NCBI GenBank assembly: GCA_963666365.2
Contig: CAXXNF010000002.1
Coordinates: 1-64,000, forward strand
Reading direction: 5' to 3'
Source of the DNA: Syntrophales bacterium
Lineage (GTDB): Bacteria > Desulfobacterota > Syntrophia > Syntrophales > UBA2210
DNA: 64,000 bases
Below are positions 1-64,000 of this stretch, one piece after another. The notes under the pieces are model-generated. The model was not told where the DNA came from. It made no database searches and saw only the letters and a program-made list of their open reading frames with translations. The first letter of the stretch is position 1, and each line of letters opens with the position of its first letter. Position numbers and translations under genes: made by a program.

Positions 1-3000
1 ACACCAGCACATCATTAAATAATGTCAGCTACCTGGAAGTGGGCGGTCATGTGAATAGTGCCTTCGCCGGCGTGGGGAGCATCGGCTTCGCACTCACCGG
101 CGTGGACTTCGGCATCCTCATGGTGGGGGACACGAAGGGCACCGCAGTGACCACCGACGACGTGAACTACATGGCGTTGAAGGCCGATGTGGCGAGCGCC
201 GGTCTCGTAGGGATCGACGGCCTCACCGCTGAAGTGACCACCCTCTCCGTAGAGGTGAACAAGACGAGCAGCCTCACGGCCCCGAACAGCGTCCTCGACT
301 TCGTGAACAGCGACGAGACGATCAACACCACCGACACCAACGCGGCCAGCGTGACCATCGCCACGGGCCCCGACACGGCCGACGTGGTGCTTGACATCGA
401 CGGCGACGAGGGGGTGCTGCTGGCGGTCATGACGAACCTGACCCTGGACGTCTTCGGCTTTGTCAGCCTCGACGGGAGCCTGGCCTTCAAGAAGGCCACA
501 GGGAGCTTCACCGTCACCGACGCCTCGACGCACACCTCCACCGCCCTGACCAATGTCAGCTACCTGGAAGTGGGCGGTCATGTGAATAGTGCCTTCGCCG
601 GCGTGGGGAGCATCGGCTTCGCACTCACCGGCGTGGACTTCGGCATCCTTATGGTGGGGGACACCAAGGGCACCGCAGTGACCACCGACGACGTGAACTA
701 CATGGCGTTGAAGGCGGACGTGGCGAGCGCCGGTCTCGTAGGGATCGACGGCCTGACCGCATCAGTAAATACTTTATCCGTAGAGGTGAACAAGACGAGC
801 AGCCTCACGGCCCCGAACAGCGTCCTCGACTTCGTGAACAGCGACGAGACGATCAACACCACCGACACCAACGCGGCCAGCGTGACCATCGCCACGGGCC
901 CCGACACGGCCGACGTGGTGCTTGACATCGACGGCGACGAGGGGGTGCTGCTGGCGGTCATGACGAACCTGACCCTGGACGTCTTCGGCTTTGTCAGCCT
1001 CGACGGGAGCCTGGCCTTCAAGAAGGCCACGGGAAGCTTCACCGTCACCGACGCATCGACGCACACCTCCACCGCCCTGACCAACGTCAGCTACCTCGAA
1101 GTGGGCGGTCATGTGAATAGTGCCTTCGCCGGCGTGGGGAGCATCGGCTTCGCACTCACCGGCGTGGACTTCGGCATCCTTATGGTGGGGGACACCAAGG
1201 GCACCGCAGTGACCACCGACGACGTGAACTACATGGCGTTGAAGGCCGATGTGGCGAGCGCCGGTCTCGTAGGGATCGACGGCCTGACCGCATCAGTAAA
1301 TACTTTATCCGTAGAGGTGAACAAGACGAGCAGCCTCACGGCCCCGAACAGCGTCCTCGACTTCGTGAACAGCGACGAGACGATCAACACCACCGACACC
1401 ACCGCGGCCAGCGTGACCATCGCCACGGGTCCCGACACGGCCGACGTGGTGCTTGACATCGACGGCGACGAGGGGGTGCTGCTGGCGGTCATGACGAACC
1501 TGACCCTGGACGTCTTCGGCTTTGTCAGCCTTGACGGGAGCCTCGCCTTCAAGAAGGCCACAGGGAGCTTCACCGTCACCGACGCCTCGACGCACACCAG
1601 CACATCATTAAATAATGTCAGCTACCTGGAAGTGGGCGGTCATGTGAATAGTGCCTTCGCCGGCGTGGGGAGCATCGGCTTCGCACTCACCGGCGTGGAC
1701 TTCGGCATCCTCATGGTGGGGGACACCAAGGGCACCGCAGTGACCACCGACGACGTGAACTACATGGCGTTGAAGGCGGACGTGGCGAGCGCCGGTCTCG
1801 TAGGGATCGACGGCCTCACCGCTGAAGTAAATACTTTATCCGTAGAGGTGAACAAGACGAGCAGCCTCACGGCCCCGAACAGCGTCCTCGACTTCGTGAA
1901 CAGCGACGAGACGATCAACACCACCGACACCACCGCGGCCAGCGTGACCATCGCCACGGGCCCCGACACGGCCGACGTGGTGCTTGACATCGACGGCGAC
2001 GAGGGGGTGCTGCTGGCGGTCATGACGAACCTGACCCTGGACGTCTTCGGCTTTGTCAGCCTCGACGGGAGCCTGGCCTTCAAGAAGGCCACAGGGAGCT
2101 TCACCGTCACCGACGCCTCGACGCACACCTCCACCGCCCTGACCAACGTCAGCTACCTCGAAGTGGGCGGTCATGTGAATAGTGCCTTCGCCGGCGTGGG
2201 GAGCATCGGCTTCGCACTCACCGGCGTGGACTTCGGCATCCTTATGGTGGGGGACACCAAGGGCACCGCAGTGACCACCGACGACGTGAACTACATGGCG
2301 TTGAAGGCCGATGTGGCGAGCGCCGGTCTCGTAGGGATCGACGGCCTGACCGCTGAAGTAAATACTTTATCCGTAGAGGTGAACAAGACGAGCAGCCTCA
2401 CGGCCCCGAACAGCGTCCTCGACTTCGTGAACAGCGACGAGACGATCAACACCACCGACACCAACGCGGCCAGCGTGACCATCGCCACGGGCCCCGACAC
2501 GGCCGATGTGGTGCTTGACATCGACGGCGACGAGGGGGTGCTGCTGGCGGTCATGACGAACCTGACCCTGGACGTCTTCGGCTTTGTCAGCCTCGACGGG
2601 AGCCTGGCCTTCAAGAAGGCCACGGGAAGCTTCACCGTCACCGACGCCTCGACGCACACCTCCACCGCCCTGACCAATGTCAGCTACCTGGAAGTGGGCG
2701 GTCATGTGAATAGTGCCTTCGCCGGCGTGGGGAGCATCGGCTTCGCACTCACCGGCGTGGACTTCGGCATCCTCATGGTGGGGGACACCAAGGGCACCGC
2801 AGTGACCACCGACGACGTGAACTACATGGCGTTGAAGGCGGACGTGGCGAGCGCCGGTCTCGTAGGGATCGACGGCCTCACCGCATGAAGTAAATACTTT
2901 ATCCGTAGAGGTGAACAAGACGAGCAGCCTCACGGCCCCGAACAGCGTCCTCGACTTCGTGAACAGCGACGAGACGATCAACACCACCGACACCACCGCG

Positions 3001-9000: not shown

Positions 9001-12000
9001 GAAGCTTCACCGTCACCGACGCCTCGACGCACACCTCCACCGCCCTGACCAATGTCAGCTACCTGGAAGTGGGCGGTCATGTGAATAGTGCCTTCGCCGG
9101 CGTGGGGAGCATCGGCTTCGCACTCACCGGCGTGGACTTCGGCATCCTTATGGTGGGGGACACCAAGGGCACCGCAGTGACCACCGACGACGTGAACTAC
9201 ATGGCGTTGAAGGCCGATGTGGCGAGCGCCGGTCTCGTAGGGATCGACGGCCTGACCGCATCAGTAAATACTTTATCCGTAGAGGTGAACAAGACGAGCA
9301 GCCTCACGGCCCCGAACAGCGTCCTCGACTTCGTGAACAGCGACGAGACGATCAACACCACCGACACCACCGCGGCCAGCGTGACCATCGCCACGGGCCC
9401 CGACACGGCCGATGTGGTGCTTGACATCGACGGCGACGAGGGGGTGCTGCTGGCGGTCATGACGAACCTGACCCTGGACGTCTTCGGCTTTGTCAGCCTC
9501 GACGGGAGCCTCGCCTTCAAGAAGGCCACAGGGAGCTTCACCGTCACCGACGCCTCGACGCACACCAGCACATCATTAAATAATGTCAGCTACCTGGAAG
9601 TGGGCGGTCATGTGAATAGTGCCTTCGCCGGCGTGGGGAGCATCGGCTTCGCACTCACCGGCGTGGACTTCGGCATCCTCATGGTGGGGGACACGAAGGG
9701 CACCGCAGTGACCACCGACGACGTGAACTACATGGCGTTGAAGGCGGACGTGGCGAGCGCCGGTCTCGTAGGGATCGACGGCCTCACCGCTGAAGTAAAT
9801 ACTTTATCCGTAGAGGTGAACAAGACGAGCAGCCTCACGGCCCCGAACAGCGTCCTCGACTTCGTGAACAGCGACGAGACGATCAACACCACCGACACCA
9901 CCGCGGCCAGCGTGACCATCGCCACGGGTCCCGACACGGCCGACGTGGTGCTTGACATCGACGGCGACGAGGGGGTGCTGCTGGCGGTCATGACGAACCT
10001 GACCCTGGACGTCTTCGGCTTTGTCAGCCTTGACGGGAGCCTCGCCTTCAAGAAGGCCACAGGGAGCTTCACCGTCACCGACGCCTCGACGCACACCTCC
10101 ACCGCCCTGACCAATGTCAGCTACCTGGAAGTGGGCGGTCATGTGAATAGTGCCTTCGCCGGCGTGGGGAGCATCGGCTTCGCACTCACCGGCGTGGACT
10201 TCGGCATCCTTATGGTGGGGGACACCAAGGGCACCGCAGTGACCACCGACGACGTGAACTACATGGCGTTGAAGGCCGATGTGGCGAGCGCCGGTCTCGT
10301 AGGGATCGACGGCCTCACCGCATCAGTAAATACTTTATCCGTAGAGGTGAACAAGACGAGCAGCCTCACGGCCCCGAACAGCGTCCTCGACTTCGTGAAC
10401 AGCGACGAGACGATCAACACCACCGACACCACCGCGGCCAGCGTGACCATCGCCACGGGCCCCGACACGGCCGACGTGGTGCTTGACATCGACGGCGACG
10501 AGGGGGTGCTGCTGGCGGTCATGACGAACCTGACCCTGGACGTCTTCGGCTTTGTCAGCCTCGACGGGAGCCTCGCCTTCAAGAAGGCCACAGGGAGCTT
10601 CACCGTCACCGACGCCTCGACGCACACCTCCACCGCCCTGACCAACGTCAGCTACCTCGAAGTGGGCGGTCATGTGAATAGTGCCTTCGCCGGCGTGGGG
10701 AGCATCGGCTTCGCACTCACCGGCGTGGACTTCGGCATCCTCATGGTGGGGGACACGAAGGGCACCGCAGTGACCACCGACGACGTGAACTACATGGCGT
10801 TGAAGGCCGATGTGGCGAGCGCCGGTCTCGTAGGGATCGACGGCCTCACCGCTGAAGTGACCACCCTCTCCGTAGAGGTGAACAAGACGAGCAGCCTCAC
10901 GGCCCCGAACAGCGTCCTCGACTTCGTGAACAGCGACGAGACGATCAACACCACCGACACCAACGCGGCCAGCGTGACCATCGCCACGGGCCCCGACACG
11001 GCCGATGTGGTGCTTGACATCGACGGCGACGAGGGGGTGCTGCTGGCGGTCATGACGAACCTGACCCTGGACGTCTTCGGCTTTGTCAGCCTCGACGGGA
11101 GCCTGGCCTTCAAGAAGGCCACAGGGAGCTTCACCGTCACCGACGCCTCGACGCACACCTCCACCGCTGACCAATGTCAGCTACCTGGAAGTGGGCGGTC
11201 ATGTGAATAGTGCCTTCGCCGGCGTGGGGAGCATCGGCTTCGCACTCACCGGCGTGGACTTCGGCATCCTTATGGTGGGGGACACCAAGGGCACCGCAGT
11301 GACCACCGACGACGTGAACTACATGGCGTTGAAGGCGGACGTGGCGAGCGCCGGTCTCGTAGGGATCGACGGCCTGACCGCATCAGTAAATACTTTATCC
11401 GTAGAGGTGAACAAGACGAGCAGCCTCACGGCCCCGAACAGCGTCCTCGACTTCGTGAACAGCGACGAGACGATCAACACCACCGACACCAACGCGGCCA
11501 GCGTGACCATCGCCACGGGCCCCGACACGGCCGACGTGGTGCTTGACATCGACGGCGACGAGGGGGGTGCTGCTGGCGGTCATGACGAACCTGACCCTGG
11601 ACGTCTTCGGCTTTGTCAGCCTCGACGGGAGCCTGGCCTTCAAGAAGGCCACGGGAAGCTTCACCGTCACCGACGCATCGACGCACACCTCCACCGCCCT
11701 GACCAATGTCAGCTACCTGGAAGTGGGCGGTCATGTGAATAGTGCCTTCGCCGGCGTGGGGAGCATCGGCTTCGCACTCACCGGCGTGGACTTCGGCATC
11801 CTCATGGTGGGGGACACCAAGGGCACCGCAGTGACCACCGACGACGTGAACTACATGGCGTTGAAGGCCGATGTGGCGAGCGCCGGTCTCGTAGGGATCG
11901 ACGGCCTCACCGCTGAAGTAAATACTTTATCCGTAGAGGTGAACAAGACGAGCAGCCTCACGGCCCCGAACACCGTCCTCGACTTCGTGAACAGCGACGA

Positions 12001-45000: not shown

Positions 45001-48000
45001 TTGAAAAATATTCCGGCGTGCCTGACTACTATGTGCTCAAGATCGAAAACGTGCGCTCCTTCAGCGTGACGGCGATCAATGCGGTGGTGACCCTGGGACG
45101 TCTCAGCGCCGATGCGACATTCAACATCAGTATCGACGGCGGCGATCCGGTGGCAGTGACCGTATCGAAGGCATCTACCGATGCCAATGTGGATATCGAC
45201 AATCTTATCGCGGATGTAAATACCGCTCTGACCGGTGCAGGATTAAGTGCAACCGTAAAGGCGGAAAAAGTGTCCATTGCCACGGGCTTCCGCATCAGCC
45301 TGACCGGCGCCTACGGCATGACCATTGAAATAAGTTACGCCGATGACAACGCCGCCTCCGAACTGGGTTTTGTCAGCGGACAGAGCAACTCCGGCCGTGC
45401 ACCGGCCATGGGCCGCTACAAGCTGGTGTTCTCAAAAGAACTGCTCGGGACAGCCATCGATGTGGCAGGTGCCGACGCCGACGTGCAGATTTCCATCGGA
45501 GACCCCTCGTACCGTCCGGCGGCGATACCACTTGGCGACATCAATGGTGACGGTTACGACGATTACATTGCCGCCGTGAAAGACAACCTCACTGGCAGCG
45601 GTTTCAGCTATGCCCGCGTGGTCTTCGGTTCGGCGGCCGGCACCGACTTTGCCCTTGAAGCGGCCGGGGGATTTATCCTCAAACTGACGGCGCCGGTACT
45701 CTATCCGACCTCCACCACCCAGGCGCAGTCTTTCTTTGCAAAACCGGGCGATTATAACGGCGACGGAAAAGATGACATCATTGTCAGTGTCACCACCCCC
45801 ACCGGCGCCACAGTGACCGGGCTCGAACAGGCCGTCTATCTCATCTTCGGGGCCGTTACCTGGGCTGATGAGTTCGATGTGTACGGTCAGGCGGACGTGC
45901 GGATCGTCGGCACCGCCGGTGCAGGCGCCCTGCGCGGATCGAGCGCCGGCAACGTAAACGGCGATGCCTATGGTGATTTCCTCGTGACCCAGGGGAGCAG
46001 CGCCTATCTGTTCTATGGAAAGGCAAAGGCCATTTGGGAAACGGAAACAGGCGAACTTCTGAACGAAGACTTCACCAGTGGTTTAGGTGGATTTTCACGA
46101 GATACCATCGATGCTGCAAACCTGTGGCACCTCACCGTTCTGCGGTCCGGCGATCCCAACCACTCTGCGGGGCAGAGCCTCTACTACGGACTTGACAGCA
46201 CCCAGACCTACAACTACATCGACAGCGTCAGCGGACTGCCCGAACAGACCCTCGGGACCGTTACGTCAGCGGAGACAAGTCTTTCCGGGTACACCACGGC
46301 CACGCTGTCATTTAAATACTACCTGGAAACAGAAGGGCGGCCGGAGAGTTATGACCAGGTCAAGGTTGTTGTGCTGAGTACCTCTGACAACTGGGATACC
46401 CAAACCGTGACCATCGTCGCCTCCAACGACTCCGCCCTGGCCGACACGGTGCTCTCCGATCCCAGTTCCGCCTGGAAGTCGGCCAGTGTCGACCTCACCG
46501 ACTTCGCCGGAAAGAAGATCAAAATCCGTTTTGCCTTCGACTCCATTGATGAGGTGGAAAACCAGTACGAAGGCTGGTATGTGGATGATGTGCGGATCGT
46601 GGCGCCCACGTCCGTCTCCGGTGCAAACGCCACGTTCACTGTTGCTGCAGGGTTTGTGTCCGCCGCCGGCATCGGCGACTACAACGGCGACGGCTTTGAT
46701 GATCTCGCCTTCCTGAATGCGGCAGGTAATGTGTATCTATACTATGGTGCAACAGGCGCCACTCCCTTCGCGGGTCCCATCGCCGTGCCGGCCTCCGACC
46801 CCGACCTGACCCTCGCCACCGGCATTGTGGGGACACTGACCCCGCTGGGTAATGTGAACGGTGATGTCAGCGGCGATTATGCGATTGATGACTTCGTGGT
46901 AAACGGTGCGGGTATGTCCTGGATCGTCCTGGGCGGCATGGGCCTCGATGCTGATCTGAAAATAATTTCCACCCGCTACTTTATCAATGTCGGCGACATC
47001 GACGGAGACGGTAAGGATGACCTGGGCGCCCTGGCTCTTGAATCGAGCCCGGGACTGCTCCAGAACGGATCGGTGGTGACTCATGCCGTGGGCCAGGTCT
47101 TCCTCGGCAGGGATTCGGATTCCTGGGCAGCCGCCTGCTTCACCTGCCCCGATCTGGTCTTCGAGCTTGACCAGCCGTCCTATCAGGATGCGGGCGGCGC
47201 CACCATTCCGCAGCATTACTTCGCCGGTGTAGGTGATATCAATAATGATGGCAAGAACGACCTGGCCGCGGCAGAAACGCTGAGTACCCAGGTCCACCTG
47301 AGTTACGGCACGGCCCTTACACGTTACAGTGCGCCTGCACAGCCCGAGACGGACAAGCCGCTGCCGAAAGTATATGTGTACGAACTGGCGAAGCCGAACA
47401 TGGGCGGGACCGGTTCCACGGCCCATACCGGTATCGATGTATCAAACGATACGATCACCGATTTCACAATGCATGATGCCTTTGCTATTGAAGGAAGCGC
47501 CATTGGACAGCAACTCTCCTCGGCCCAGGCCATCGGTGATTTCGACGGAGACGGCAGCGACGACTTCATGGTGAGCGGTACGTTGGCAAGCTATATCTTC
47601 CTCGGTCCCATGGACCTCACCGGGCTTTCGAATGTAAACATCGCCGCCGATTTCATAATCGATGCCGCCTCACTGGGCACACCGGCCGACGCCATGGGCG
47701 ATGTCAACGCCGACGGAAAGACCGATCTGGCCTTTGTGCGCCATGACGATGCAGGCAACAGGACCGTCGTAACCGTGATTTTCGGCGGGCGCGTCATGCC
47801 CAGGACCATCGACGCGTCCTCCCTGGAGGCGCTCTACGCCCGGACCATCGAATTGGAGGATACGCTGCTCGAGGAGACGGGCGAAATTACCGTCATGATC
47901 GGGAACTGGAGCGGCCATGTGGATGTCCAGACCGGGCGCTTCTTCAACGATCTGCTGGTGGTCTCCTCGCTGCCGGGCGCCACCAACAGCTACGGCTATG

Positions 48001-51000
48001 TCTTCGCCGGCGATACGATCAAGGCCCGGACCACTACCATGGGCACCGGCGATGCCCTGGTGGACCTGAAACTCTTCACCACTACGGTGAATGTGGCCGA
48101 CGACCGTGTACCGGTGCGGACGCCCGACCTGGATACCCTGGAATCGACCACGAAGGTTACGATTGCGCCGGTGCATACGGTCATCGGTACAGCAGGCGCC
48201 ATTACCGACGCTGGGCAGAACACCTACGAGATCAATCAATCTGTGTCACATGCAGTAGGTAACGGTCTTACGGGACAATACTACGACGGCATCAATCTTG
48301 ACCAGACGATAAGTTATACCTGGTCGAATTACAGCGATTACGGGATTTACGACTATCAGACGACGTACTCTCATATTTATGTCGGGAACAGCGGCCTTAC
48401 AAATCTCAGTGTAAGCTGGCAGATTTACCACACCTATATCGGAGACCTGCGAATTACCGTGATCGCACCGAACGGTACAGAATATGTGGTGCATAATCGC
48501 AGCGGCGGGAATACCCGTGCTAATCCATGGTATCTGGTGAGCAACGTGGGGATCGGTACGCCAGGTACTACGGCCGGATGGTGGACCTTCAAGGTGGAAG
48601 ACCTTGCCGGAAGTGATCAGGGGTGGATTGACGGATGGCAGATTCACGGAACCGTGGGAGGAAGTTCGGCTCTAACCGGGACCGCGAGCACCGTCAATTT
48701 CGGCGACACACAGCCCGTGACGGGGCAAATGGAAACATACTCCAGCCGCTGGACGGGCTATGTGTCGGCGCTGGCTTCAGGCTACTATCAGTTCCGCACC
48801 TATAGCGATGACGGGGTGAGATTATATTTGAACGACGGCCTGGTCATCAATAACTGGACCGATCACGGCGGCACGTACGATTATTCCGGCAGTTATTACC
48901 TGACTACCGGAACCTATTATTCAATAAAGATGGAGCACTATCAAAATTACGGCGGCGCGGTGGCACGTCTGGAATGGAACGGTCCGGGCACCAACGGGTG
49001 GCAGGTGGTGCCCGAGCAGGCGCTGTTCACGGCAAATACGGGAGGAACACCCAAGTACATTACCGACTCCAACATCACCGTCTCCACCATCAATGTGAAC
49101 GCGGCCACTGCGGGCGCCGCCTACCCGATAGCGAGTGTAGAAGCGACTGTTAACCTGAAACATACCTACATCGGCGACCTGGTCATCTCGCTGGTATCGC
49201 CTGAGGGGAACACCGTCATTCTGCACAACCGCAGTGGTGGAAGTACGGATGATATTAATGGAACCTATACCGTCGGCACTGTTCCCGGTCTTGGGATTCT
49301 TCAGGGTGCGCGCGCCGATGGAAACTGGCAGCTGAAGATTGAGGACAAGGCCGGTGGCGATCAGGGTTGGCTGGCGCAATGGTCCCTGAAGATTGCTACG
49401 TACCAGGATATCGCAGAGAGCACTCCCTACAGCGCAAGCGCAACCGGAATTTCAGGAAATATTACCGACGTCAACGTGCGCATTACTCTGGATCACCCCA
49501 ATCTGTCGGAGCTGAAAATAGAATTGAAGCATGTGGTGTCGAATAGAACAATCACCCTTTTCGACCGGAACGATCTTTCAGGGGCCGATTTGCTGGGTAC
49601 GGTCTTCGATGCGGGGGCTTCAAGTGACATTTGGAACGGAACGGCCTCTTACACGGGAACATTTCTCCCACGGGGCAGCCTTGATTTCTTTGACGGACAA
49701 AGTCCCAACAGCGAGTGGCAGCTTATCATTACAGATTACGTACACAGTACCGCATCAGGGGCTCTCGTCAGCTGGTACCTGGATGTGCGCACTGATGAAA
49801 TAATTGCCTCGACGATTACGGTCTCCGGACTTTCGAAGGACAACGATGATGTGACGCTCACCGACGTGAACCTGTGGCTCAATATTTCCCATGCTTCGTC
49901 CGACAATGCTTTAAATATCTGGCTGGTGAGTCCCGGCGGGACGGAAGTGCAGCTTTGCGACAGTACAGAGGTGACGGGAAGAAGTCTCTCCGGTGAAGTC
50001 TTTGACGATGAGGCGGGCGATTCCGTCCTGAACGGGTTCTTTACGGCAGCGCACTCTGATTCGGAGGGCAACCTCAACGGGACCTGGACGCTCAAGATCC
50101 AGGATACCACCGGCAATGTCTCCGGCACCCTGAACGGTTGGACCCTCTATTTGGGGACCTCGCCGACGGTGTCGCAGATCGAAGTCGCCGGTCTTCCCGA
50201 CGGGCTGCGCGATCTTGACGTCACGGTGACCCTGGGCGACGATCCCGCTAATGGCTATGATTTCAATCTGGACGACTACTCGCTGGTGGTGCGCAAACTC
50301 AATACCGACGGCACGGTGCTGATCAGTAAAGCGCTCTTTAACCAGGGTACGCTGACAGGCAGCGCCCTGGGCAATGTGGTGCTGGGGACCACCTTCGACG
50401 ACGAGGCGGCCATCGATATCGGCGCAGGCGACGCGCCCTACACCTCTTCTTACAAGCCGGTTTCGTACACTGAGGATGGGAGCGGGGAACAGGTGGACGG
50501 TTTGATCGCCTTCGACGGCATCGATCCCAACGGTATCTGGGAACTCGTGCTCACCGACCACGAGGGAAAGACGGTAGGAAGGATCGAGGACTGGTCGCTC
50601 ACCTTCTCCTTCGAGCCGGAAGATGCCGATGCCCTGTCGGTTGTAGTGGGCGGCGACATCAGCGGGAACGGTCTCGACGATCTCGTCATCGGCGTGACTT
50701 CATTCAATACGGCGCCGAACGACGAACCCGATCCACGCATCGGCTGGGCCTATGTGCTGGGCGGCAGGCTCAGCGCCGCCAATACCGGCAAGGGAACCGT
50801 GACGAACGGCAACGACCTTGCCGACGAGACGGTGATCGCCTCCGCCTGGACGGCCCTGGGTTCCGATTTCATGAATGCCCGCGCGGTCTTCAATCTTGCC
50901 GGCGGCAACAACAATCTCTGGTTCGAGGCCCTCGATGCGGATGCCACTGCCAACGACATCCTGATCAAACTGGTCATGGATACGGATCTGACCACCGACC

Positions 51001-54000
51001 CGGCCAAGGCCTCGTACCATATCGGAACGAGGGTACTCACCATCACGGTTCGAAATCGCTTCACCACGGCAAACGACGTGATCAACGCGGTGCAGAATGA
51101 TACCGAGGCGGCTGGTTTCCGTGAGATCTTCCGCATCGCCCTCACCGCCGAGAGCGTGGTCAATGTGACGGACCACGCCGGATTCCGGGTGTCCGACACG
51201 AGCCTTGGCGCCGGGGTATACGCCCTTGGCGACCTGAACCGCGACGGATACGACGATTTCGCCGTAAGCCGCACCCGGGAAGACGGAGGATCGGCACTGG
51301 GGGGCCTGCTTGTGTTCTATGGCGAGGCGAGCTATGGCGAAGGGCCGGTCTCCGCCCTCGATGCCTCCACCATGACCGATATCATCATTCAGCAGGCCAC
51401 TGCCGACGAGTTGGGTGCCACCAGCCTGGTCGGTTCGCTCCAGGCCACTGCGGGTGACATCAACGGTGACGGCGTACAGGATTTGATTGTCGGCCAGCCG
51501 CAGGTCATCCGGATAAGCTCCGTCTCCGATGAATACAGTGTAAACGAAATCCTTAACCGCAACGAACGGGGCAGCGTCTATGTCTTCAAGTCGATTTCCA
51601 CGCGAAGCATTCAGCTCACCCTTGCCGAAGCCGATCTCATCATGGACGGCGAGGGCGAGTACGATCATTTCGGCTATCTGGCGCTTACGCCGAATATCGA
51701 TCTGGACGGCGACCGCATCGACGATCTTCTGATCGGCGCGCCCACCCTGGACGGCATTCTTGGCGGCGTAAAACAGGATGCAGGCCAGATCTACCTCATC
51801 TACGGCAACTACCGCACCGCCGTGATGCCCGTGACCGGTTACGGTATTCTCACCAACCGGACCATCACCGGCAGCGGCAGCTTCCTGGTCGATACGGGCA
51901 TCGGCCGCCCCGACCGGTTCTACGATCCCGATCTGGACGGCGATGGAGTCCTGGATGCCACCCGCTATACCATCGTGACCGGCGAAGGGCAGAAGTGGTA
52001 CCGCTTCACCACCCTCGGCGATGGATATCTCGGCACCATGATCCGCCTTACCCCTGCGGCCTCTGCGGGCATGACCGTACGGCTTTCAGGATATGACGGC
52101 GTGATTGCCGGCGGCCTCGTCGATCCCGACGGAACCGTGGAGAACGACGAATTCCTGGTAGGACCGGCGGTGGACACGGAGGAGACTTCCTTTACGGTTA
52201 AATTCGTCGGTGGTGCTGCCCAGGGCAGCGAGAGTGCCTCCTATGACACAGACACCGATACGCTGACCGTCACAATCGAAAGCGGCGTGTCAACCGCAAA
52301 CGACATTATTAAGGCCATCAACGCCACAACCATGGCCGGCGCTTCCTTCCGTGCAGTCCTGGCGGGTACGGACAACAGTGGAGAAGGAACGGTCTCCGAC
52401 GGGAACCACAGCGTGAAACTGAACGTGGTGCTTGCCGGCGACGGGCTGGAAATGGCCTCGGGAACGGCCGCGATTCTCGAATTCGACCTGAGCGCCTACC
52501 TGGCCTATATGGACGATCCGGAAGTGCTGGCACAGGTGGCTCTGCTTCTTTCGGGGCTTTCAGGTACTGCGGTGACCCTCCCCTCGCCGGTGTCGAATCT
52601 GACCGTGGTGGACGAGGACTCTCTCTTCTTTACCACCGTTGACACGAACGGGATCTACCAGCTCTGGGAGAGCGACGGAACGGCCGGCGGCACGCGGCAG
52701 GTTGCCGAGCTTACCGGTACGCCGGGCAGCCTGATGGATGTGGCCGGAACGCTCTATTTTACCCTGGAAGAGGGGCTGGTAAGCACCAACCTGGGTACCG
52801 ACAATCCCGATCAGCTTTGGAAGGTGCAGGCGGGCGAACCGCGCATCGTCTTCGTGGATGATTTCGATGCCACGCCCGATGCTGTAATTGCGGCGGGAAC
52901 CAAGATATTCCTGAATGTAAACGACAAAATCCGTGTCGTCGATACCGACGGTAACGGTGCCTGGGTCACCTTCGGAGGATCGGCAATTGAAGGTGTCACC
53001 GAGATGGCTGAAGTTGGCGGAACCCTCTATTTCATCGGCGATTATCTCGATCAAAAGACACTCTTCTCCACTACTGGCGGAACGGCGAGCCTGGTGGCCG
53101 AGACGGAATCGCTCTACGGGACGAGCGGTGCCTTTGTGGCGACCGTGGACGGCGCCGAGCGCATCTATTTCACCGCGCCCTATGAGGGGTACAACGTCCT
53201 CTGGTACACCGCGGGCGGCGCTGCCCAGGTGATCAGAGATTCCGGCGACGCCACCCTGAGAGCCCCCGCCAATTTCACGATCTTCAAGGGGATACTGCTG
53301 CTTTCCGCAGACAATGGTGTGTCGGGGAACGATCTCTGGAGAAGCGCCGATGGCGTGAACTTTACGCTGGTCAACAGCGGAGCCGGCATCAACTCCGGCG
53401 GGGCCGCAAATCCGCGGAACCTGTTCGTCTACCGGAACGGGACGGACACGACCGACGATGATCTGCTCTATCTGAGTGCCAAGGGAAGTGATGCCGCGGG
53501 GTCCGAGCTGTGGAAGAGTGCGAACGGCGCGACCTTTGCGCAGGTTAAGAACATCAATGCGACCAGCAAGGGATCATCCAGCCCGAACAACTTTGCAGAG
53601 TTCGGCGGAAAGGTCTATTTCGCGGCCGACGATGGATCAAGCGGCTTCGAACTATGGGTGACGGACGGTTCGGCGGCGAACACGAGCCGCATTCGTGATA
53701 TTAATCCCGGGTCAGCGTCCTCATCGCCGAGAGGCCTTATCGTATACGACGGTGTGCTCTATTTCTCTGCCGATGATGGCACCCACGGGAGAGAGTTGTG
53801 GACAAGCGACGGGACGGAAGGCGGCACCGTCATTTACAAGGACATTCGTGACGGCGAAAAGAGCTCCGATGTGGGGAACTTCATACTCTTCAACAATGGG
53901 ACCACTGACACCGAGGATGATGTGCTGTACTTTACCGCCGACGACGGTGTCCACGGGAATGAACTCTGGTTCATGACTTCCGGTACGGCCGGCGCCGACA

Positions 54001-57000
54001 TAACCCCGCCGGGGAGCAACAACGATATGACCCTTACCAGCTCCGATAAGGAAGGCGGCGTGAGCGTGGTGTTTGCCCATGGTGATGTGACCATGGGTGC
54101 CTGGACCATTGCCGCCTCCACCGTGACCACTGTCGATCCTGACGGCGATGACAACGGGATCAGACTGACCGAGAGCGGCGGTGATGCAAAGAGTCTCGTG
54201 TTGATTCATGCAGACGGGCAGGACGGTGATTCGGCGACAGCCTTCTGGCTTGCGACAGATAAGATTATCAAAGTGGAGATCAACAGCGGTGTGACTAGGG
54301 CCGGGACCATTATCACTGCAATTAACACCGTTTCAGGGGACAGTGATGTGACGGCGGCAAATGCCACTGGCAGCGACGGCTCGGGTATCGTGGGAACCGG
54401 CAGGGAAGCGTCTGCATCATGGTCTTCAACCAGCCGAACCATCACGGTGACCATCAAGGCGGGCGTTACCACCGCTGACGATGTGATTGCCGCCGTCAAT
54501 GCGCGTACCGGAGAGACCTCCATCACGGCAAGCCTCAACAGTTCTGTGGAAACAGGTAACGACGGCTCGGGAACCATCAATACCGAACCGGTTACCACCG
54601 CGGGCGGCGTGGACGGCGCCGGCCCCACCTGGACGCTGAGTCTGCCCGGCGCCGACAATGATATTCTCATTACCGGAGATACCACCACCGACTACAGCGG
54701 GTTTGCGGTGAATGTGGTCGAGGATAGCGATCCAGGTACGAATTTCACCGAGTTCTTCGCAAAGGCCTCATGGAACAGCGATACCAGTCTGCTTACCATC
54801 TCCATCGCCACAGGCCAGACTACGCGGAACGACATTATGGGGGCGGTGGGCACCTCCCTGCGTCCCAATGCGGCCATTCCCCTGACGGCCTCGGCCGCGG
54901 CGGGAGAGCCCGACAATAACGGCATAGTGGGGATCACGGCTATCACCAGCGGCAGCAGCGACGGCGCTTTGTCCGCCGTGGTGATCAATCCGGAAGGGGA
55001 TCTCAATGCGGTAAGCGTGACCGCAGTCAACCCGGGCAGCGGCTACGACGACCTGCGGGTCCTATACGTGGACGATGGTTCCGTCAGCGACGGCACGCCC
55101 GTTGCGGTCTATGACAGCGTCAATAACGTATTGACTGTCACGATTCAGAGCGGCGTGACTACGGCACAGCAGGTCATTAACGCGATCAACGCCGTGACGA
55201 CTGATTACACAGGAACGACTGCCGACTTCAATACGCTTTTCCAGGCCGCCGTGAACGGAGCCGGGACAGTGACCTTTACCACACCCACCCATGTGACCAC
55301 GGGGGGGAGCAGTGGGAAGTCCTCTGTCACGATCAGTTCCACTGGCGGCAATAATGATGTGACCATCGAGGCGGATTCTGCAGGGGTGGCTTACGACGGA
55401 CTAAGGGTGTTGTTCTACGATGACGGCACCTACGCCGGCAACGAGGCCTCGGCGATCTATGATGCGGGTGCGAAGATTCTGATGGTCCTTATAAACAATG
55501 GTTCTACCACGGCGATCAAAGTTGTAGAGGCAATCAACGAAATTGCGGGACTCAATTATACCGCTACATACGGGGGAAACGGTGGTGGGTATGTGCAGGT
55601 GACGACCCCGGCCGACCGTACCGCCGGAGGCGTCGACGGGTCCGCGAAGGCCTTTGTGGAGGTCGATGTCGCCGGTGATGACAATGTGGTGAGAATCGAG
55701 GCCCTGGCGAACGGCAGCGCCGCCAATAACGCGGGGATCATTTTCATAGACGATGTTTCGGTTACGGGCAACGATGCCACGGTCCGCTGGAACGCAGACG
55801 ATCATATATTAATCGTGAAGATTGAAAAGGACGTCACCACGGCCCAGACGGTCATCGACACCGTCAACAACTACGTGAGTGAAGATATGGATGCCTTCCG
55901 GACGGTGTATGCCGCCTCCGGGCCTGTGACTGCCGGCGGTACGGTCGCGGCGCCCATAGCGGTGACCGGCGGCGGCAACGACGGCACGGCGGCGAGCGGA
56001 TCCTTCACTGTGCGGGATGATGCCATCACGGTCACGGCGGCCAACCTGGGGACGGCCTACAATAATGTGCAGGTGCTGCTTGTCGCCGGTGACACGGAAG
56101 GGGCTGTTTACAACAGCGACAACAAGCGCATCACGGTCACGATCGATAAAAACGGAACCACCACCACTGCAGATATTGCAACGCTCATTCATGGTTTGGC
56201 CGATTTTAACGCCTCAGGTGGCGATACGACGAAAGTATTTACGCCGACCTTTACCGATGTGACCGGAGAAACCGGTGTGGACGGCGTGACCGGAGTGGCT
56301 GCAAGCGCGACCTTTACCGTGGCCGGAAATACTATTGACGTCACCGCCGATGCAACCGGGGCAGAGTGGAGTGTCAGCAAATTGGTGCTAACCTCCGGCG
56401 GATCGCTGGGGGCGCCGAGTTTTGACGACGCCACCGACACGATCACCCTGCAGATCGTTGCGGCAACTACGACGACCCTGCAGGTGGCCAGCGCCATCCA
56501 TGACATGGGCGATTTCAACGTTGACACGCTTCCGGAGGACGGCACCCTCGCTGTTGCAGGTACTTTCAACGGCACGGGCGTGGTCACCGGTGTCACGGCG
56601 GTTACGGCCGTTGCGGCAAGCGGTACCTTCACGATTCAGGGCGGAACGACGGCGATTACCGTGACAGCGGCCACAGCCGGCACCGCATACAATGACGTGG
56701 ATGTGCTACTCGTGGCGGATGTGAACGCCGGCAGTGAAAGCGCAGGGTATGTCCACGCCGCCGGCGCCGGTGTAATCACCGTCCATGTAGCAAAGGACGG
56801 TTCGACGACGGCAACGATCATAAAGAATAAAATTAATGGCTTGACTGATTTCAACGCTACCGGCGGAGATACAAAGAATATCTTTACCGACACCTATGCC
56901 GACGCCACCGGGTCGAACGGCGTCGATACGGCGCCCTCCGCGGCCGATCTGGATTTGAATCCCGATCCCGCTGTTGATGCGGTCATTACGGTCACCGCCA

Positions 57001-60000
57001 AGGCGGACGGCACGGCCAATGACGGCGTCCTTATTTACGTCATCGATAACGGGAGCATCGCAGACGGGACCGCTGCGACACAGTGGGACAGCGTAAACGA
57101 AAAATTGAAGATTACCGTTCAATCCGGGGCGACCACAATTGGTACGGTACTAACCGTCATCAATAACACGACCGGCTTCAAAGATCTCTTTGAAGCGTCC
57201 TCAACGGACAGTGGGACAATCATTGTTCCCAGCGGTCTTACCGACGGCGGTGAAACGGCGACAGCTTCAAAGGTCACGCTCACTCTGGACGGAAGCAATA
57301 ACGATCTGCTCGTCACTGCCGCGCAGGGTGGTACGGACTACGACAATGTCACGGTGAAGCTGATAGACGATGGCACTATCACAGGCACCAGCACCACGGC
57401 AGCGGCGAGCTACAACAGCGCGGACAAGGTATTGACCATCAACATCAACAGCGGCTACACCACCGCCGGGGCCATTGTAACTGCTTTGGGAGACGGGAGC
57501 AGCACCAAATTCACCGCCGCGCCTACGGGCAGTGACGGCGATACAACCGGCGCCGTGTCGTTGTCGCGCGTGACCAATCCTACCGGCGCCTCCGGTGGAG
57601 GAAAGGCCTCCGCCACCGTTGCTCTGGCGGGGACGACCACGTCAATCAGCGTTACGGCGGAAAATAACGGTGCCGCCTACTCCGGTGTGCGCATACGATT
57701 CGTTGACAGTGTGCTCGAAATCGGTCAGGAAACAGCCGTCTACAATGACATCGCCAGTGAAATTGTAGTCAGCATCAAGGCCGGCGCCACTACTGCAGCT
57801 CGGGTCATTGAGGTTATCGATGCGCTTGCCGACTGGAACGCGGTACTGGCTTCGGGCAGTTCCGGGGCGAAAATCGACACCGCGGCAGTGAAAACCGTCG
57901 GGACCTATGGCATGGCGGCGGACATCAACAGTTCGGGGAGCGCCAGTCCGTCGCATCTGACCATGTATGAAGGAAAAGTGTATTTCACCGCCAGCGACGG
58001 AACCAACGGCATCGAGTTGTGGGCGGTCAATCCCGTCGGCAATGGGGTTGCCATGGTGGCCGATATCAATGTCTCCGGCAGTGCTGTCCCCCAATACCTG
58101 ACGGTATTTGCCGATGATTCAGATAAGGAATGGCTCTATTTTGCCGCCGGCAACGGCACCGTGAAAGGGCTGTGGCGGACCGACGGAACCGATACTGCCC
58201 AGGTCGGCGCATTTGTCACACCATCCACCCTTGCGGCAGGCAGCGACAGACTTGCCGTAATTTCCCGGGATGGTTCCAACAATGTGCTGACCCTCATTGC
58301 AACGGATGGGAGTACCCAGGGCGTGGGCAAGCAGGCGCCCGTAACGGATGCTTCCAATCTAACCGGCTGGGAGTACGCCGTCGATCAGCACGCACTGGTC
58401 TATGTGGTCGACAATGGTGCAACCTATTCGCTGCAGACGACGGCCTCGACCAGCGCGATCGTGACCGGCAGCGCGTCGATTATCGACAACCTGACCGGCG
58501 TGGGCGGCAACCTCTTCTTTACCGTAGGCGGGAAATCCCTCTATGTGTCCGTCGAAGGCGCCGCGGCGGTCAAAGTGGAGGAATATCCCTATCTGCTTGA
58601 GAATCTGACTGCAGTAGGCGATACCCTATTCTTCGTGTACGATTCCGGAACGACCGATGTGCTCCACGCATTCACCTACGCGTCCGATGCCACACCCGTG
58701 TCGGTCAAGCGCCTCTCCGGTGATGCCTCTTTGATGATCAATGTGAACGGCACGCTCTTCTTTAAACTGGGAAGTGACCGCGGCACAAGCCTGTGGCAGA
58801 GCGACGGCACACAGTCGGGTACGGTGCAGGTGAGCTCTGTCTCGGACGGTTTCACATCAACCGTGCCGAATCCCGCCAATATGGTGGTTCTTTCCGGCTC
58901 GCTTTACTTTACGTCGACCGACTGGAACGGAGAGGCAGTACTGTGGAAGAGCGAGTACGACGGAGAGACGTCAATCTGGACCACGGGCCGCCTGGAAACA
59001 TTCGGCGGCGTGCCGCTGCCCAGCATCACAGTGGAAGTGCTGGCAGCGGAAGGCGACGGGATGATCACCGCCTCCGATTTCGCGGCGCCGGCCCTTGCTG
59101 CCTATACCACTAAATCGAACCAGAATTTCCTGGATCTTACCATGGTGGTGCGCGAATTCCTGGCCTCCGGAAAGACCTGGCTTACGCTGCGCCTCCAGAG
59201 CGAATCGGCGATTACCCTGCGAAGGGCGTGGCTGGCCGACGACAGTGCCACCGGCCTGATCGTCGAGACGGTGGAGCGGACCGGGGTGGTGGCCGATCTC
59301 TACACCTATGAGGGGCGTCTGCTTGTCCAGGGACAGTCGATCGTCGACCTGAGCCGGTTCCCCGCAGGCACCTATTTCCTCAAGGTCTACGATCCGAACA
59401 ACGCGATCGGCACGGAAAAGGTGCTCGACGACCAGGGCCACCAGATCGGCAGTCCCACACTACTGACCGCCGTGGGCGACATGGCCTACTTTGTCCACGA
59501 GACCAAATTGTGGCGCACCAATGGTGTGTCGGTTGCCGAAGTGAAGATCGCCGGAATACCGAATGGCAGCGTGTTCAGTCCTGCCAATCTGATTGGTGTG
59601 GGCGAGACGCTTTTCTTCACGGTTGGCAGCGGTGCAGATACGGAACTGTGGAAAACCGCAGGCGTCTTCGCCGAGAAGGTGGGCGACCTGAGCAATGGCC
59701 CGGCCCATATGACCGCCGTGGGCGACAGTCTGTTCTTCTTTATCGATACGTCCCTCTATGCCAGTGACGATTCGAGCGTCGAATTCGTGAAGACTCTTGC
59801 TGATATTGCCGCCTCTGATATCACCGACCCGGTTGCTTCCGGAGAGGTATTCTTCTTCCAGGTACAGGGCGCCCTCTGGAAGAGCGACGGCACCGCGGAC
59901 GGTACCGCTGCGGTATCCATCGTCGATCCGGGTGTGATCGATTCCCAGGATCTGGTGGCCATGAACGGCTTCCTCTACTATCTGGTCCGCGAGGGATCGG

Positions 60001-63000
60001 TGGTGACACTGTGGAAGGCCAGCCCCCTTGAGGGCGAACTGACCGGAGCGGAGCCCCTGAGCATAGCCGCCCTGGCGGCGATCGATGCCACGGCGACCGA
60101 TCTCCTGGGCGTCCTCGACGGTCGTCTGCTCTTCACGGTAACCGATGGTAAGGGTACAGGAACTACTGACGACGATGAAGTCCAGCTCTGGATCACCAAC
60201 GGGAACGGCGACAAGTTCTTCGGCGATGACGTGGACGGCACGTATATGATCAACGCCGACATCGGCGGCAGCGCCGATTACCTGAAGATCGCCGACGGTC
60301 TGCTCCACTTCGCCACGAAGGTGGCCGACAACGTCTTCCAGGTCTGGACCACCGACGGTGCCGAGGCCGGTACCGTCCAGAAGATCGGCGATGCTCCGGG
60401 CGTCATTACCGCGGCGGCTGATCTGCTCCCCGGCAGGATTATGGAAACGGTCGACCTTGGCGGGACCCTGTATCTTCTGACCGAAACCGATACCTATCCG
60501 ATGCTCTGGAAGAGCGACGGCACGAAACTGGAGCTTGTGACCACCCTGTCCGGTGAGGCCTACGGGCTTACCGTGGTGCGTGATACGCTGTATTTCGCAG
60601 TACGGATGGCGGATGCCGTCACTGAAGACAACGATACGCCCGATGACGATTCCGACGACTGGACCCGCGACGGCTACACGCTCTGGAAGAGCGACGGTTC
60701 CGCCGCCGGTACGATCATGGTGAAGAACCTGGGGAATATCAATCCGGGCATCATTGACAATCTCTCGGCAGTGGGGACGCGGCTGATATTCACATGTCTT
60801 AACGTGGATGACGGCACCTATGACTACAGCCTCTGGGTCACCGATGGGACCGGTGTGGGCACGGTGCCCATCGCGAGCGGCTCGGCCGGTACGCTGCCCT
60901 ATGGAACCGCCGCGATCACACCGAAGAATTTTATCACTGTGGGTGAAACCCTGTTCTTTACCTTCCAGGGGGCGCTGTACAAGACCAACGGGACGGAAGA
61001 GAGCACGGAGAAAGTGAAGGAAGGAACCTTTACGCTCCTGACCGATGTCAACGGCACACTCTTCTTCGAGACCGGCGGGGCCCTCTGGCGGTCAACCGGC
61101 ACCCTGGTGGACGTGCCCTTCACCGTAGCGGCCAAGGCGCCCATCGCCGGCGCGAGCCATGCCGCCGCCGACCGTGACGTGATCCACGGCGGCGACGGGG
61201 ACGACATCCTCATCGGCAACGCCGATCACGACCAGCTCTTCGGCGAGAGCGGCGAGGACTTCTTCGTGGCCGAATCGAAGGAGATCAGGGATCTGGCTTC
61301 CTATGAGACCTTCGATCTGCCGCCGGCCGCCGAATTCAGCGTGAATCAGCCGCGATCCAGCGACACGGAAGTGTATATTCCCGACAATGCGCTGCGGGCC
61401 GGCATTGCCCGGGCGCTGGATATCCCCGTGACGACGGACTACCTGGGCCGGCCGCTGGCGCACGAACCGATTTACGCCAGCGCCATGTCCACGCTGACGG
61501 AACTGCAGCTTTTCGGTCTGGGGATCGAAAATCTGACGGGCATCCAGTTTGCGAACAACGTGACCGTGCTGAACCTGAACGACAATCGAATTATGGATCT
61601 CGGCCTGCTCGTGCCGGCCACCGATCCGATCACCGGCGCGCCCACGGGCATGGCCAACCTGGGGATCTTCACCATCGATCACAACGGCGGTGGCGCTCTC
61701 TCCTTCGACGGCGTGGACGACTATGTGGATATCGAGGCCGATGTGTCCGAAATCGAGCTGACGGTCACCTTCTGGTTCAGGTCCGATAGGGGCAACGTCG
61801 GCCTGTTCAGTGCCGATGCGGGCATCCGCGGGTCCGAAGGCCACGATAGGGATATCTATCTCGATGCAGCGGGGCACATGGTCGCGCTGCTCTGGGACGG
61901 CGACTCATCACAGTACGAAGCGCTGATAACCGACGCAGCTTTCGCCGATGGTCAGTGGCACCATGTGGCCTATCTGTACAGCGACAACGGTGCCGGCACA
62001 AAGCAGCAGCTCTATGTGGACGGTGATCAACAGACCGTCACGAGAGAGTACATCAACAAGAGCGGTGTGATCGACAGCGACCCGGCGCCGCAGGCCGGGC
62101 AGACCGAAGGACGTGAGCAATCCTCCAGTTTCTCCTGGCAGACCGGAATCAACCTGGGCTATGCGCAGACAGCCGACGGCACGGCCCTCTATCTTGAAGG
62201 CGAAATGGACGAGGTCCGCATATGGCACAAGGCCCTGAGCGAGGAGTTGATTGTTGCCGACATGACCAACGACTACCCGGGTGAGCGCGTCTACCTGGTA
62301 GGTTACTGGAACTTCGATGAACCGTCAGCGACCAGCGTGCTCGACAGTTCTCTCTATGAGCGGAGCGGTGTCCTTGGCGGCGGCGTCGATACGCGCAGAC
62401 CGGTGCGGGTACGCGTGAATCCCGCGGAGAAGCCGACGGTTGCCACTGCCTATGACACGGCCTTCAAGACCGACATCCACCACCTGGCGGATCTGAACAG
62501 ACCCGGTCAGTTGACGCACCTGAGTCTGGATTACACCCGGACCTTTGATCTGACGCCGCTCGCTGAGCTGACGGAACTGGTGTTCCTGAGTCTGGACGGC
62601 GTGGTTCCCGCGGGAACGCCGATGCTTGCGGAAGTCGTGGATCACAGCGTTGATCATCTGGTGGAGACCAAGGACGGCACGGTGATCAACCTTGAGAAGG
62701 GGCACACGCTGGTCCTCAGCAGCGGCATCTTCGCCTGGAAACGGCTGCAGGTGGGCGGCGGCGTGGATACCGACGAGGCGTTCACCATCAGTCGCGGTAA
62801 TTGGGACGGCAGCGTCTTTGCCGGGTCGAGCACGGGAACCCATCTGCGTGTCGAGGCCTTTGGTGTGACTGAGTATCACAGTATCGCCGGCGGAAGCATC
62901 ATCCAGATCCTCTTCGACGGCGGGAACGGCGATGACGTACTTATAGTGGATGCCAGCGTGACACTGCCGGTGTACGCGGTGGCCGGCGACGGCAACGATA

Positions 63001-64000: not shown

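Follow-up and report, generated by a model that had tools for sequence, protein, structure and literature searches.

The stretch of DNA analysed here, a window of 64,000 nucleotides (nt), is the very start (G000:C2:1-64000) of the larger of the two contigs, C1 and C2, that make up a 4.0-Mb metagenome-assembled genome (MAG) of a Syntrophales bacterium, rated 94.24% complete and 3.15% contaminated. The + strand is coding across the whole window and the frame is lost at small indels only, 5 of them on C2 within a tandem array of 531-bp repeats and at least 27 inside a 2.9-kb patch (39144-42060). We refer to the giant gene to which the window would belong as gene A and to a second giant directly after it as gene B; upstream of gene A, on C1, lie the genes of a putative export module (Table 1).

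A sequence-only reading of the window had described it as continuous + strand coding without a start or a genuine stop, the inside of one gene of more than 21,000 amino acids (aa) and 2 MDa, and had looked to the flanks for both ends. The flanks do provide them. The start is an ATG at C1:10792 (minus strand) that opens a frame of 2605 aa; gene A then runs off position 1 of C1 within the 531-bp array and picks up at position 1 of C2, and the true stop, which follows the residues ELIFLGP, is found at C2:64371-64373, 371 nt beyond the window. No LEPR-type start exists within 1-64000, the three matches of a whole-genome six-frame scan all being outside the window. It is the position of the contig break, within the array, that puts the start on the other contig. 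The 531-bp unit has 44 matches genome-wide, 37 on C2 and seven on C1, with none elsewhere, and since its only location outside C2 is the end of C1, gene A should continue upstream on that contig. The copy number is at least 44, some copies being perhaps absent because the contigs end without overlap. The span of gene A (10,792 + 64,370 nt) comes to a minimum of 25,054 codons (~2.5 MDa), and its open pieces alone amount to 22,945 aa and 2.36 MDa (pI 4.05, 19 Cys), above the size first proposed. After the stop there is a 403-nt spacer with a GC content of 0.476 and then the LEPR-XLL start of gene B, and such a boundary is seen only at 64371-64777. We consider it probable, with a good degree of confidence, that the window lies wholly inside one gene A, 25,054 or more codons long, and just as probable that all the frame breaks of gene A are consensus errors of the long-read metagenome assembly, mostly single-base insertions. 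The places where these errors accumulate would be the near-identical repeats, the end of the contig and a single 2.9-kb patch with poor polishing, and the frame would be continuous across every break.

Table 1. Features of gene A and its surroundings (positions without a contig name are those of the window)
Feature	Position	Strand	Details
Stalk array	1..19569	+	37 tandem copies of a 531-bp (177-aa) unit, 96-99% mutually identical
Stalk array, upstream part	C1:15-3738	minus	7 more copies
Out-of-frame stretch in one copy	2885..3161	+	three 1-nt insertions (2885, 3118, ~3161), net +3
Out-of-frame stretch in one copy	11167..11562	+	2-nt deletion in CCC run (11167), 1-nt insertion in G run (11562)
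Diverged stalk-like units, then Ig-like modules	19570..31100	+	no Pfam match
RTX nonapeptide (calcium-binding beta-roll) region	31100..39143	+	21 HemolysinCabind stretches (6+7+5+3)
Low-quality patch	39144..42060	+	coding, with 27-29 frame changes (~1 per 100 nt)
Distal region	42061..64000	+	PPC-like domains, RTX, FG-GAP, MAM-like, PA14, three P_proprotein, FG-GAP again, Laminin_G_3, last RTX block
Gene B	C2:64777-97829	+	second LEPR-XLL giant, ~11,017 codons, directly after gene A
TolC/OEP protein, 522 aa	C1:19806-18238	minus	OEP 134 bits
HlyD adaptor, 291 aa	C1:18241-17366	minus	HlyD_D23
GAF-HlyD adaptor, 624 aa	C1:17274-15400	minus	GAF 33 bits, HlyD_D23/HlyD_3
PqqD-like/M50-protease/adaptor fusion, 718 aa	C1:15398-13242	minus	Peptidase_M50 27.3 bits (cut-off 27.2)
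Shortened SecA paralogue, 678 aa	C1:13290-11254	minus	SecA_DEAD, SecA_PP_bind, P-loop_SecA

Architecture of gene A

The domains of gene A were identified by Pfam and NCBIfam profile searches. Its N-terminus, MPMSRIDPDRLFELEALEQRVMLSADP, matches the model NF012209 (LEPR-8K) with 32.5 bits at residues 12-33 (cut-off 17). This leader is followed by ~2,350 aa of diverged units and these by the near-identical 177-aa units, at least 44 in number. Beyond the main RTX region there are further HemolysinCabind matches, two at ~43 kb and two or three at ~63 kb, and the last RTX block (~62.9-63.4 kb) occupies a position ~330-470 residues ahead of the C-terminus, with ~330 residues left behind it. The FG-GAP, PA14, MAM-like, P-domain, LamG and PPC-like set of the distal region would represent modules of the adhesion or lectin type. 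The predicted architecture is along the lines of what the first description of the window had proposed, a long repetitive stalk (the 177-aa units) and then a region with putative ligand-binding modules of the PA14/LamG/FG-GAP type. Judging from its sequence, the product would be a very acidic (pI ~4) and nearly cysteine-free extracellular fibre.

The stalk array was found with a k-mer script and had been overlooked by Tandem Repeats Finder because the longest period of this program is 500. A model of two stalk units, built from an alignment of 32 rows, reached a pLDDT of 88.5 and a pTM of 0.84 and predicts antiparallel strands whose length is often 12-24 residues. No match to the stalk unit was found in the PDB by Foldseek at E<=0.001. 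We have also considered a kinship to outer-membrane barrels, suggested by VIA-align matches with Z up to 10.6, and rejected it: the matches (rmsd 5-16 A) are to a generic long beta-meander and were read as a common arrangement. At the sequence level 416 representative relatives of the unit were found at E<=0.001, and most of them are fragments of large proteins. There is one hydrophobic strand per unit, and otherwise no transmembrane-like segment was seen in the gene A product.

Antisense open reading frames (ORFs) of up to 990 aa, at 24914-27886 and in other minus-strand frames of the window, lie opposite gene A. The codon bias of gene A, at a GC content of 57-63%, most likely gives rise to them. 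The codon score of the reverse complement is far below that of the sense strand.

Frame breaks in the stalk array and in the 39-42 kb patch

The array is very regular, 35 of the 37 copies on C2 having exactly 531 nt when compared with the consensus of the clean copies, and the two stretches that are out of frame are each confined to one copy (Table 1). The in-frame stop at 11208-11210 sits within the second of them. On C1 there are seven single-base insertions spread over three of the seven copies, and four of these insertions fall in the copy at the contig end, a pattern that suggests thin coverage there. The sequence-only reading had attributed every break to a small indel, which agrees with our results, but its list was incomplete: the break at 2885-3161 had been missed, and the positions given as single breaks, 39134 and 42061, mark where a patch with tens of frame changes begins and ends.

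When the + strand is read automatically from stop to stop, the frames obtained are 3-2888, 3051-11210, 11507-39178 (9223 aa) and 42060-64373 (7438 aa). Such a reading would yield several separate co-oriented genes (e.g., 3051-11210, 11507-39178 and 42060 onward) with their own starts and products. This we find scarcely credible, since each piece opens partway through a repeat unit or a domain, none of the breaks has a spacer, a leader or a LEPR motif, the sole genuine boundary (64371-64777) looks quite different, and the homologue in a related genome (G041, described below) is one frame.

A way to look into the nature of the patch is to follow its codon bias. A codon-bias Viterbi path places 27-29 frame changes within 39144-42060 and zero in the 1.1 kb before and the 0.9 kb after it; a false stop (39176-39178) and a false ORF start (42060) are located inside. 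The score of the path is 427, near the 459-511 obtained in ten trials with held-out intact coding sequence into which 29 random indels were introduced, and far above those of ten shuffles (-245 to -173); the reverse complement scored 137. The GC content of the patch is 0.62, with no 120-nt window below 0.51, high in comparison with the true spacer past gene A. On the grounds of these scores and of the GC content, the patch is coding sequence with ~1% indels and not a spacer.

Independent contigs from the runs X1 and X4 provide a second view of the same region. Six Viterbi breaks are covered by the listed contigs and at all six the contig shows an indel of the sign that restores the frame. At 39145 X1 leaves out one base, precisely at a +1 frame change; at 40163/40165 X1 leaves out two bases and X4 leaves out 40161/40165; at 40416, 40436 and 40502 X4 leaves out one base each; and X1 inserts a G after 42060. 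Upstream of the patch three X1 contigs are identical to the window (36532-39059, 0 differences), and over 39060-39513 X1 has three letter differences and the single gap at 39145. The domain content is also consistent with coding through the patch. A PPC-like domain straddles 42060, being formed by the last in-patch segment (41746-42060) and the start of the downstream frame, and it has a paralogous copy with 47% identity at 42285-42518, while RTX motifs are found before the patch, inside it (~40.0-40.1 kb) and after it. A DNA search with the region 37000-44000 in 41 related genomes (G000 included) gave short RTX-type matches only and no orthologous stretch.

The breaks could also be real, gene A then being either a pseudogene of recent origin or subject to phase variation through indels in repeats or homopolymers. 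Of the five events in the C2 part of the array, two do fall in short homopolymers (the CCC run at 11167 and the G run at 11562), and giant repeat genes are generally costly and prone to decay. However, a run of at least 27 indels in 2.9 kb, when the frame is unbroken for 27.6 kb on one side and 22.3 kb on the other, is a misfit for neutral decay, and downstream of the breaks the frames are still open and in register. Of the 12 array events at least ten are single-base insertions, four of them in the contig-end copy, and a near-identical independent contig does not have the extra base at 39145. Similar frame changes in gene B are crossed collinearly by an uninterrupted protein of G041. We regard real breaks as quite improbable, and assembly errors in an intact gene A as the better explanation.

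More has to be weighed in the case of a chimeric assembly, either at the patch or at the contig junction, that would have joined parts of two giant genes or strains, the real gene being shorter or differently composed. Several facts count against a single continuous gene A. No accurate read or contig spans any break end to end, and the ends of C1 and C2 do not overlap (best identity 97.8%); we infer their join within the array from the orientation, the uniqueness of the repeat and the gene order in G041. All the runs consist of contigs of low depth (~2x), and a difference found in one contig at depth <5 could be an error. None of the contigs extends across the patch as a whole, and the runs X7 and X2 give little or no cover of it. 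X1 is 100% identical to the window before 39059 and only ~90-93% alike from 41210 on (~65-75 differences per 700-1100 nt), so that a change of strain falls at the patch. When proteins of 239-2000 aa were searched with the first segment of the patch (39144-39551), no homologue appeared at E<=0.001. The G041 homologue is unrelated to the window from 31 to 64 kb (one hit only), and therefore no relative tests continuity across the patch. As for the product, its surface location, its export and the cleavage of its leader are suggested by domains and synteny.

A chimera would also be in keeping with the indels themselves, ~1% in the patch and none in 50 kb of flanks, as expected of a thinly covered bridge, with the contamination of the MAG (3.15%) and with the exchange of modules among such genes that G041 illustrates. 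Against it, the patch keeps the same codon bias and GC content and is coding throughout, RTX blocks occur on both sides and inside, and one domain straddles its downstream end. X1 has both flanks at similar depth, there is no LEPR start or AT-rich spacer in the patch, and an indel rate of 1% is far below the raw error of long reads, so that several reads must presumably span it. A chimera seems to us unlikely, and a single gene A with consensus errors remains the preferred reading.

High-depth contigs matching 36000-45000 (depth 94-322 in X1/X7 and 9-28 in X4) join distant RTX blocks, for example 36766 to 43051. They probably reflect RTX motifs of other abundant organisms in the samples and not rearrangements of gene A.

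Long-read MAGs break or frameshift genes of this kind at repeats or at sites of strain variation. As a result, annotation gives 4-30 fragments and the true gene is missed.

The LEPR-XLL leader and the upstream module

The LEPR-XLL motif, FELEALEQRVMLSADP, of roughly 24 residues, exceeds the cut-off in three genes of the genome, of which gene A and gene B are two. In a genome scan with NF012209 gene A and gene B gave 35.9 and 36.5 bits, and 14 control genomes gave 0 matches. Five residues (E15, E18, R20, L23 and S24) are invariant in the alignment of seven leader sequences. The third LEPR-8K N-terminus is at C2:2378825-2378884 on the minus strand and opens a frame of 3849 aa.

Upstream of gene A there are five genes, tightly spaced and all on its strand (Table 1). 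The M50-adaptor fusion matches the model of the daptide-type HExxH intramembrane protease with 171 bits and has an RND_mfp domain at residues 449-604, and its PqqD-like domain is a weak match (18.8 bits, cut-off 23.4). The SecA paralogue covers positions 5-618 of the 787 positions of TIGR00963, below cut-off, and no match to SecA_SW, the scaffold/wing domain, was found in it at E<=0.01. The canonical SecA is encoded elsewhere (C2:250454-252679, 1124.8 bits). The earlier proposal of type I export was right about its accessory components, as HlyD-type adaptors and TolC are adjacent and RTX repeats abound in the cargo, but the type I route as proposed is not supported: the neighbouring ATPase is a SecA paralogue and the leader of the cargo is N-terminal. 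There is no ABC gene between C1:10792 and 19806. Genome-wide, no HlyB-type transporter (TIGR01846) reaches the cut-off of 725.55, the best of 84 matches (359 bits) being at C2:1953540 and none near the gene A locus. The classical HlyB/HlyD/TolC set that had been predicted for the flanks is therefore not what was found there.

The association of module and leader is repeated in other genomes. Among the related loci there are five whose contig extends beyond the SecA-like gene, and in each of these a LEPR-8K open frame comes next, in one of them (L022) after TolC and one more gene. A complex predicted for the leader (residues 1-60) and the M50-adaptor (residues 1-130) scored 0.53, the best of three controls 0.00, with a partner pLDDT of at least 43 and at least 55% of the contacts common between runs, a slight hint that the leader may bind the N-terminal part of the M50-adaptor. 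The route of export might be as follows. The leader would target the unfolded chain to the co-oriented upstream module, where the SecA-like motor, in place of an ABC transporter, would drive it through a duct formed by adaptors and TolC; the M50 protease would remove the leader, and extracellular calcium would fold the RTX blocks and so stop the chain from sliding back. Gene A would make an extreme test case for such a TolC-linked machine, with an N-terminal leader and a SecA-like protein moving a 2.5-MDa chain across two membranes. Gene B probably uses the same machine.

An interspersed element of ~110 nt (34 BLAST hits in the genome) occurs at C2:64469-64588 and at C1 ~10900-11080. Gene A and gene B are each preceded by a spacer that contains this element, the two copies being inverted relative to each other, and it may represent a MITE/REP-like repeat or a regulatory site.

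Gene B, homologues in other genomes and known giants

Gene B starts at 64777 with the N-terminus MFQLEGLEQRIMLSADP, which matches LEPR-8K with 31 bits at residues 2-24 (cut-off 17), and contains tandem arrays of 684 and 645 bp and seven Cadherin_3 stretches. Its C-terminus has no significant similarity to that of gene A, and we have no common C-terminal signal to propose. There are several frame changes in its 3' part (~93.4-96.7 kb), where the comparison with an uninterrupted homologue proved most helpful. This homologue comes from the genome G041 (locus L017, on a contig of 1.62 Mb), in which TolC, two adaptors, the M50-adaptor and the SecA-like protein are followed, in this order, by a LEPR-8K frame of 23,093 aa without a stop (G041:C21:1307439-1376717). 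Its last ~4000 residues match the end of gene B collinearly, passing through frames 3, 1, 2 and 3 over C2:93.9-97.8 kb, and the end of gene B was placed at ~C2:97829 by this match. The collinearity across the frame changes shows, independently of reads, that the assembly carries frame-breaking indels in conserved coding sequence.

The same G041 frame aligns collinearly with gene A, starting at the leader and passing an array of 178-aa repeats, as far as position 31135 of the window, with 47-65% identity (65% over 19570-31135). The 23,093-aa protein is thus gene-A-like in its N-terminal half and gene-B-like at its C-terminal end, which suggests, as far as sequences can tell, that modules may be shuffled between giant genes. 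No Pfam domain was found in its C-terminal half beyond one weak match to DUF6897. A second uninterrupted LEPR-8K frame in the same genome (G041:C3:281964, minus) has 15,496 aa. Within the same order LEPR-8K was detected in 16 of 151 genomes (G000 included), with the longest open frames at 9,572-12,549 aa. Among relatives, those with a SecA-like protein of 63-80% identity carry the label of uncultured Desulfobacterales or Syntrophus MAGs, and one with 48% identity is labelled Verrucomicrobiales.

The comparison with known systems places gene A among the LEPR-XLL giants (NF012209, 'LEPR-8K'), which are likewise huge, acidic and rich in repeats and carry the N-terminal motif. It differs from them in size, about twice the length of any LEPR frame in the 151 genomes of its order, with only the 23,093 aa of G041 being comparable, and in combining the leader with long RTX regions. 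The type I giant RTX adhesins (of the LapA, SiiE and MpIBP type) share with it the acidic and cysteine-poor stalk, RTX blocks that include one near the C-terminus, distal modules of the lectin type (PA14, LamG), and HlyD-type adaptors with TolC nearby. In contrast, gene A has no HlyB/LapB-type ABC exporter next to it, nor one at cut-off in its genome, and its targeting signal is N-terminal rather than (only) C-terminal. It is also ~3-10 times longer than these adhesins.

The module itself has a precedent. Kamneva et al. (2015; PMC4452313) described an ABC-less locus composed of a secondary SecA_DEAD protein, Peptidase_M50-HlyD, GAF-HlyD and HlyD, with or without an OEP, and proposed that the SecA_DEAD protein is the ATPase and the M50 protein the membrane component. 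Methylobacterium extorquens AM1, which can be cultivated, is named by them among the carriers. All five components are present and co-oriented upstream of gene A, again with no ABC gene and with a SecA paralogue that lacks the scaffold/wing domain. The word 'giant' has no occurrence in the main text of that paper, and the link to LEPR-XLL cargo rests on the loci examined here. A literature search joining SecA, TolC, M50 and 'giant protein' found no work on the module among the records listed, and one for 'LEPR-XLL' gave single mentions only. We know of no experimental test of a module of this type linked to LEPR-XLL cargo. The kind of ABC-less module is not wholly new to the literature, and the present case stands out by its size, by having two giants in tandem and by the artefacts of the assembly.

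A further group is that of the giant proteins of Omnitrophota and other phyla, in which SecA-like domains lie within the giant itself together with many transmembrane helices (West-Roberts et al., 2023; bioRxiv 10.1101/2023.11.21.568195). Like them, gene A runs to tens of thousands of residues and is predicted to form large antiparallel beta structures; domains of the adhesion type and the association with a SecA DEAD/preprotein-binding unit without scaffold and wing domain are further points in common. In gene A, however, the SecA-like protein is a separate gene, and the lineage differs. If our interpretation is true, gene A falls outside the phyla for which West-Roberts et al. report proteins of >30,000 aa.

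These observations taken together lead us to favour, with moderate confidence, the view that gene A encodes a true single polypeptide of at least 25,000 residues (~2.5 MDa), the largest cargo yet tied to an ABC-less SecA-like/M50-adaptor/TolC module. It would be one of two tandem LEPR-XLL giants that share one exporter and together take up ~36,000 codons, or 2.7% of the 4.0-Mb genome, and its stalk would represent a family of 177-aa antiparallel beta-meander repeats that has no Pfam model or solved structure and is near-identical over at least 44 copies. If the frame is continuous, the product is among the largest bacterial proteins on record; as a comparison of length, the protein of Chlorobium chlorochromatii has ~36,800 aa.

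At the far end of C1 a YjbH gene, unrelated to gene A, runs off the contig. The same end (C1:1527245-1536439) carries two Wza-like polysaccharide-export paralogues (SLBB/Poly_export) whose shared segments are 85-93% identical.

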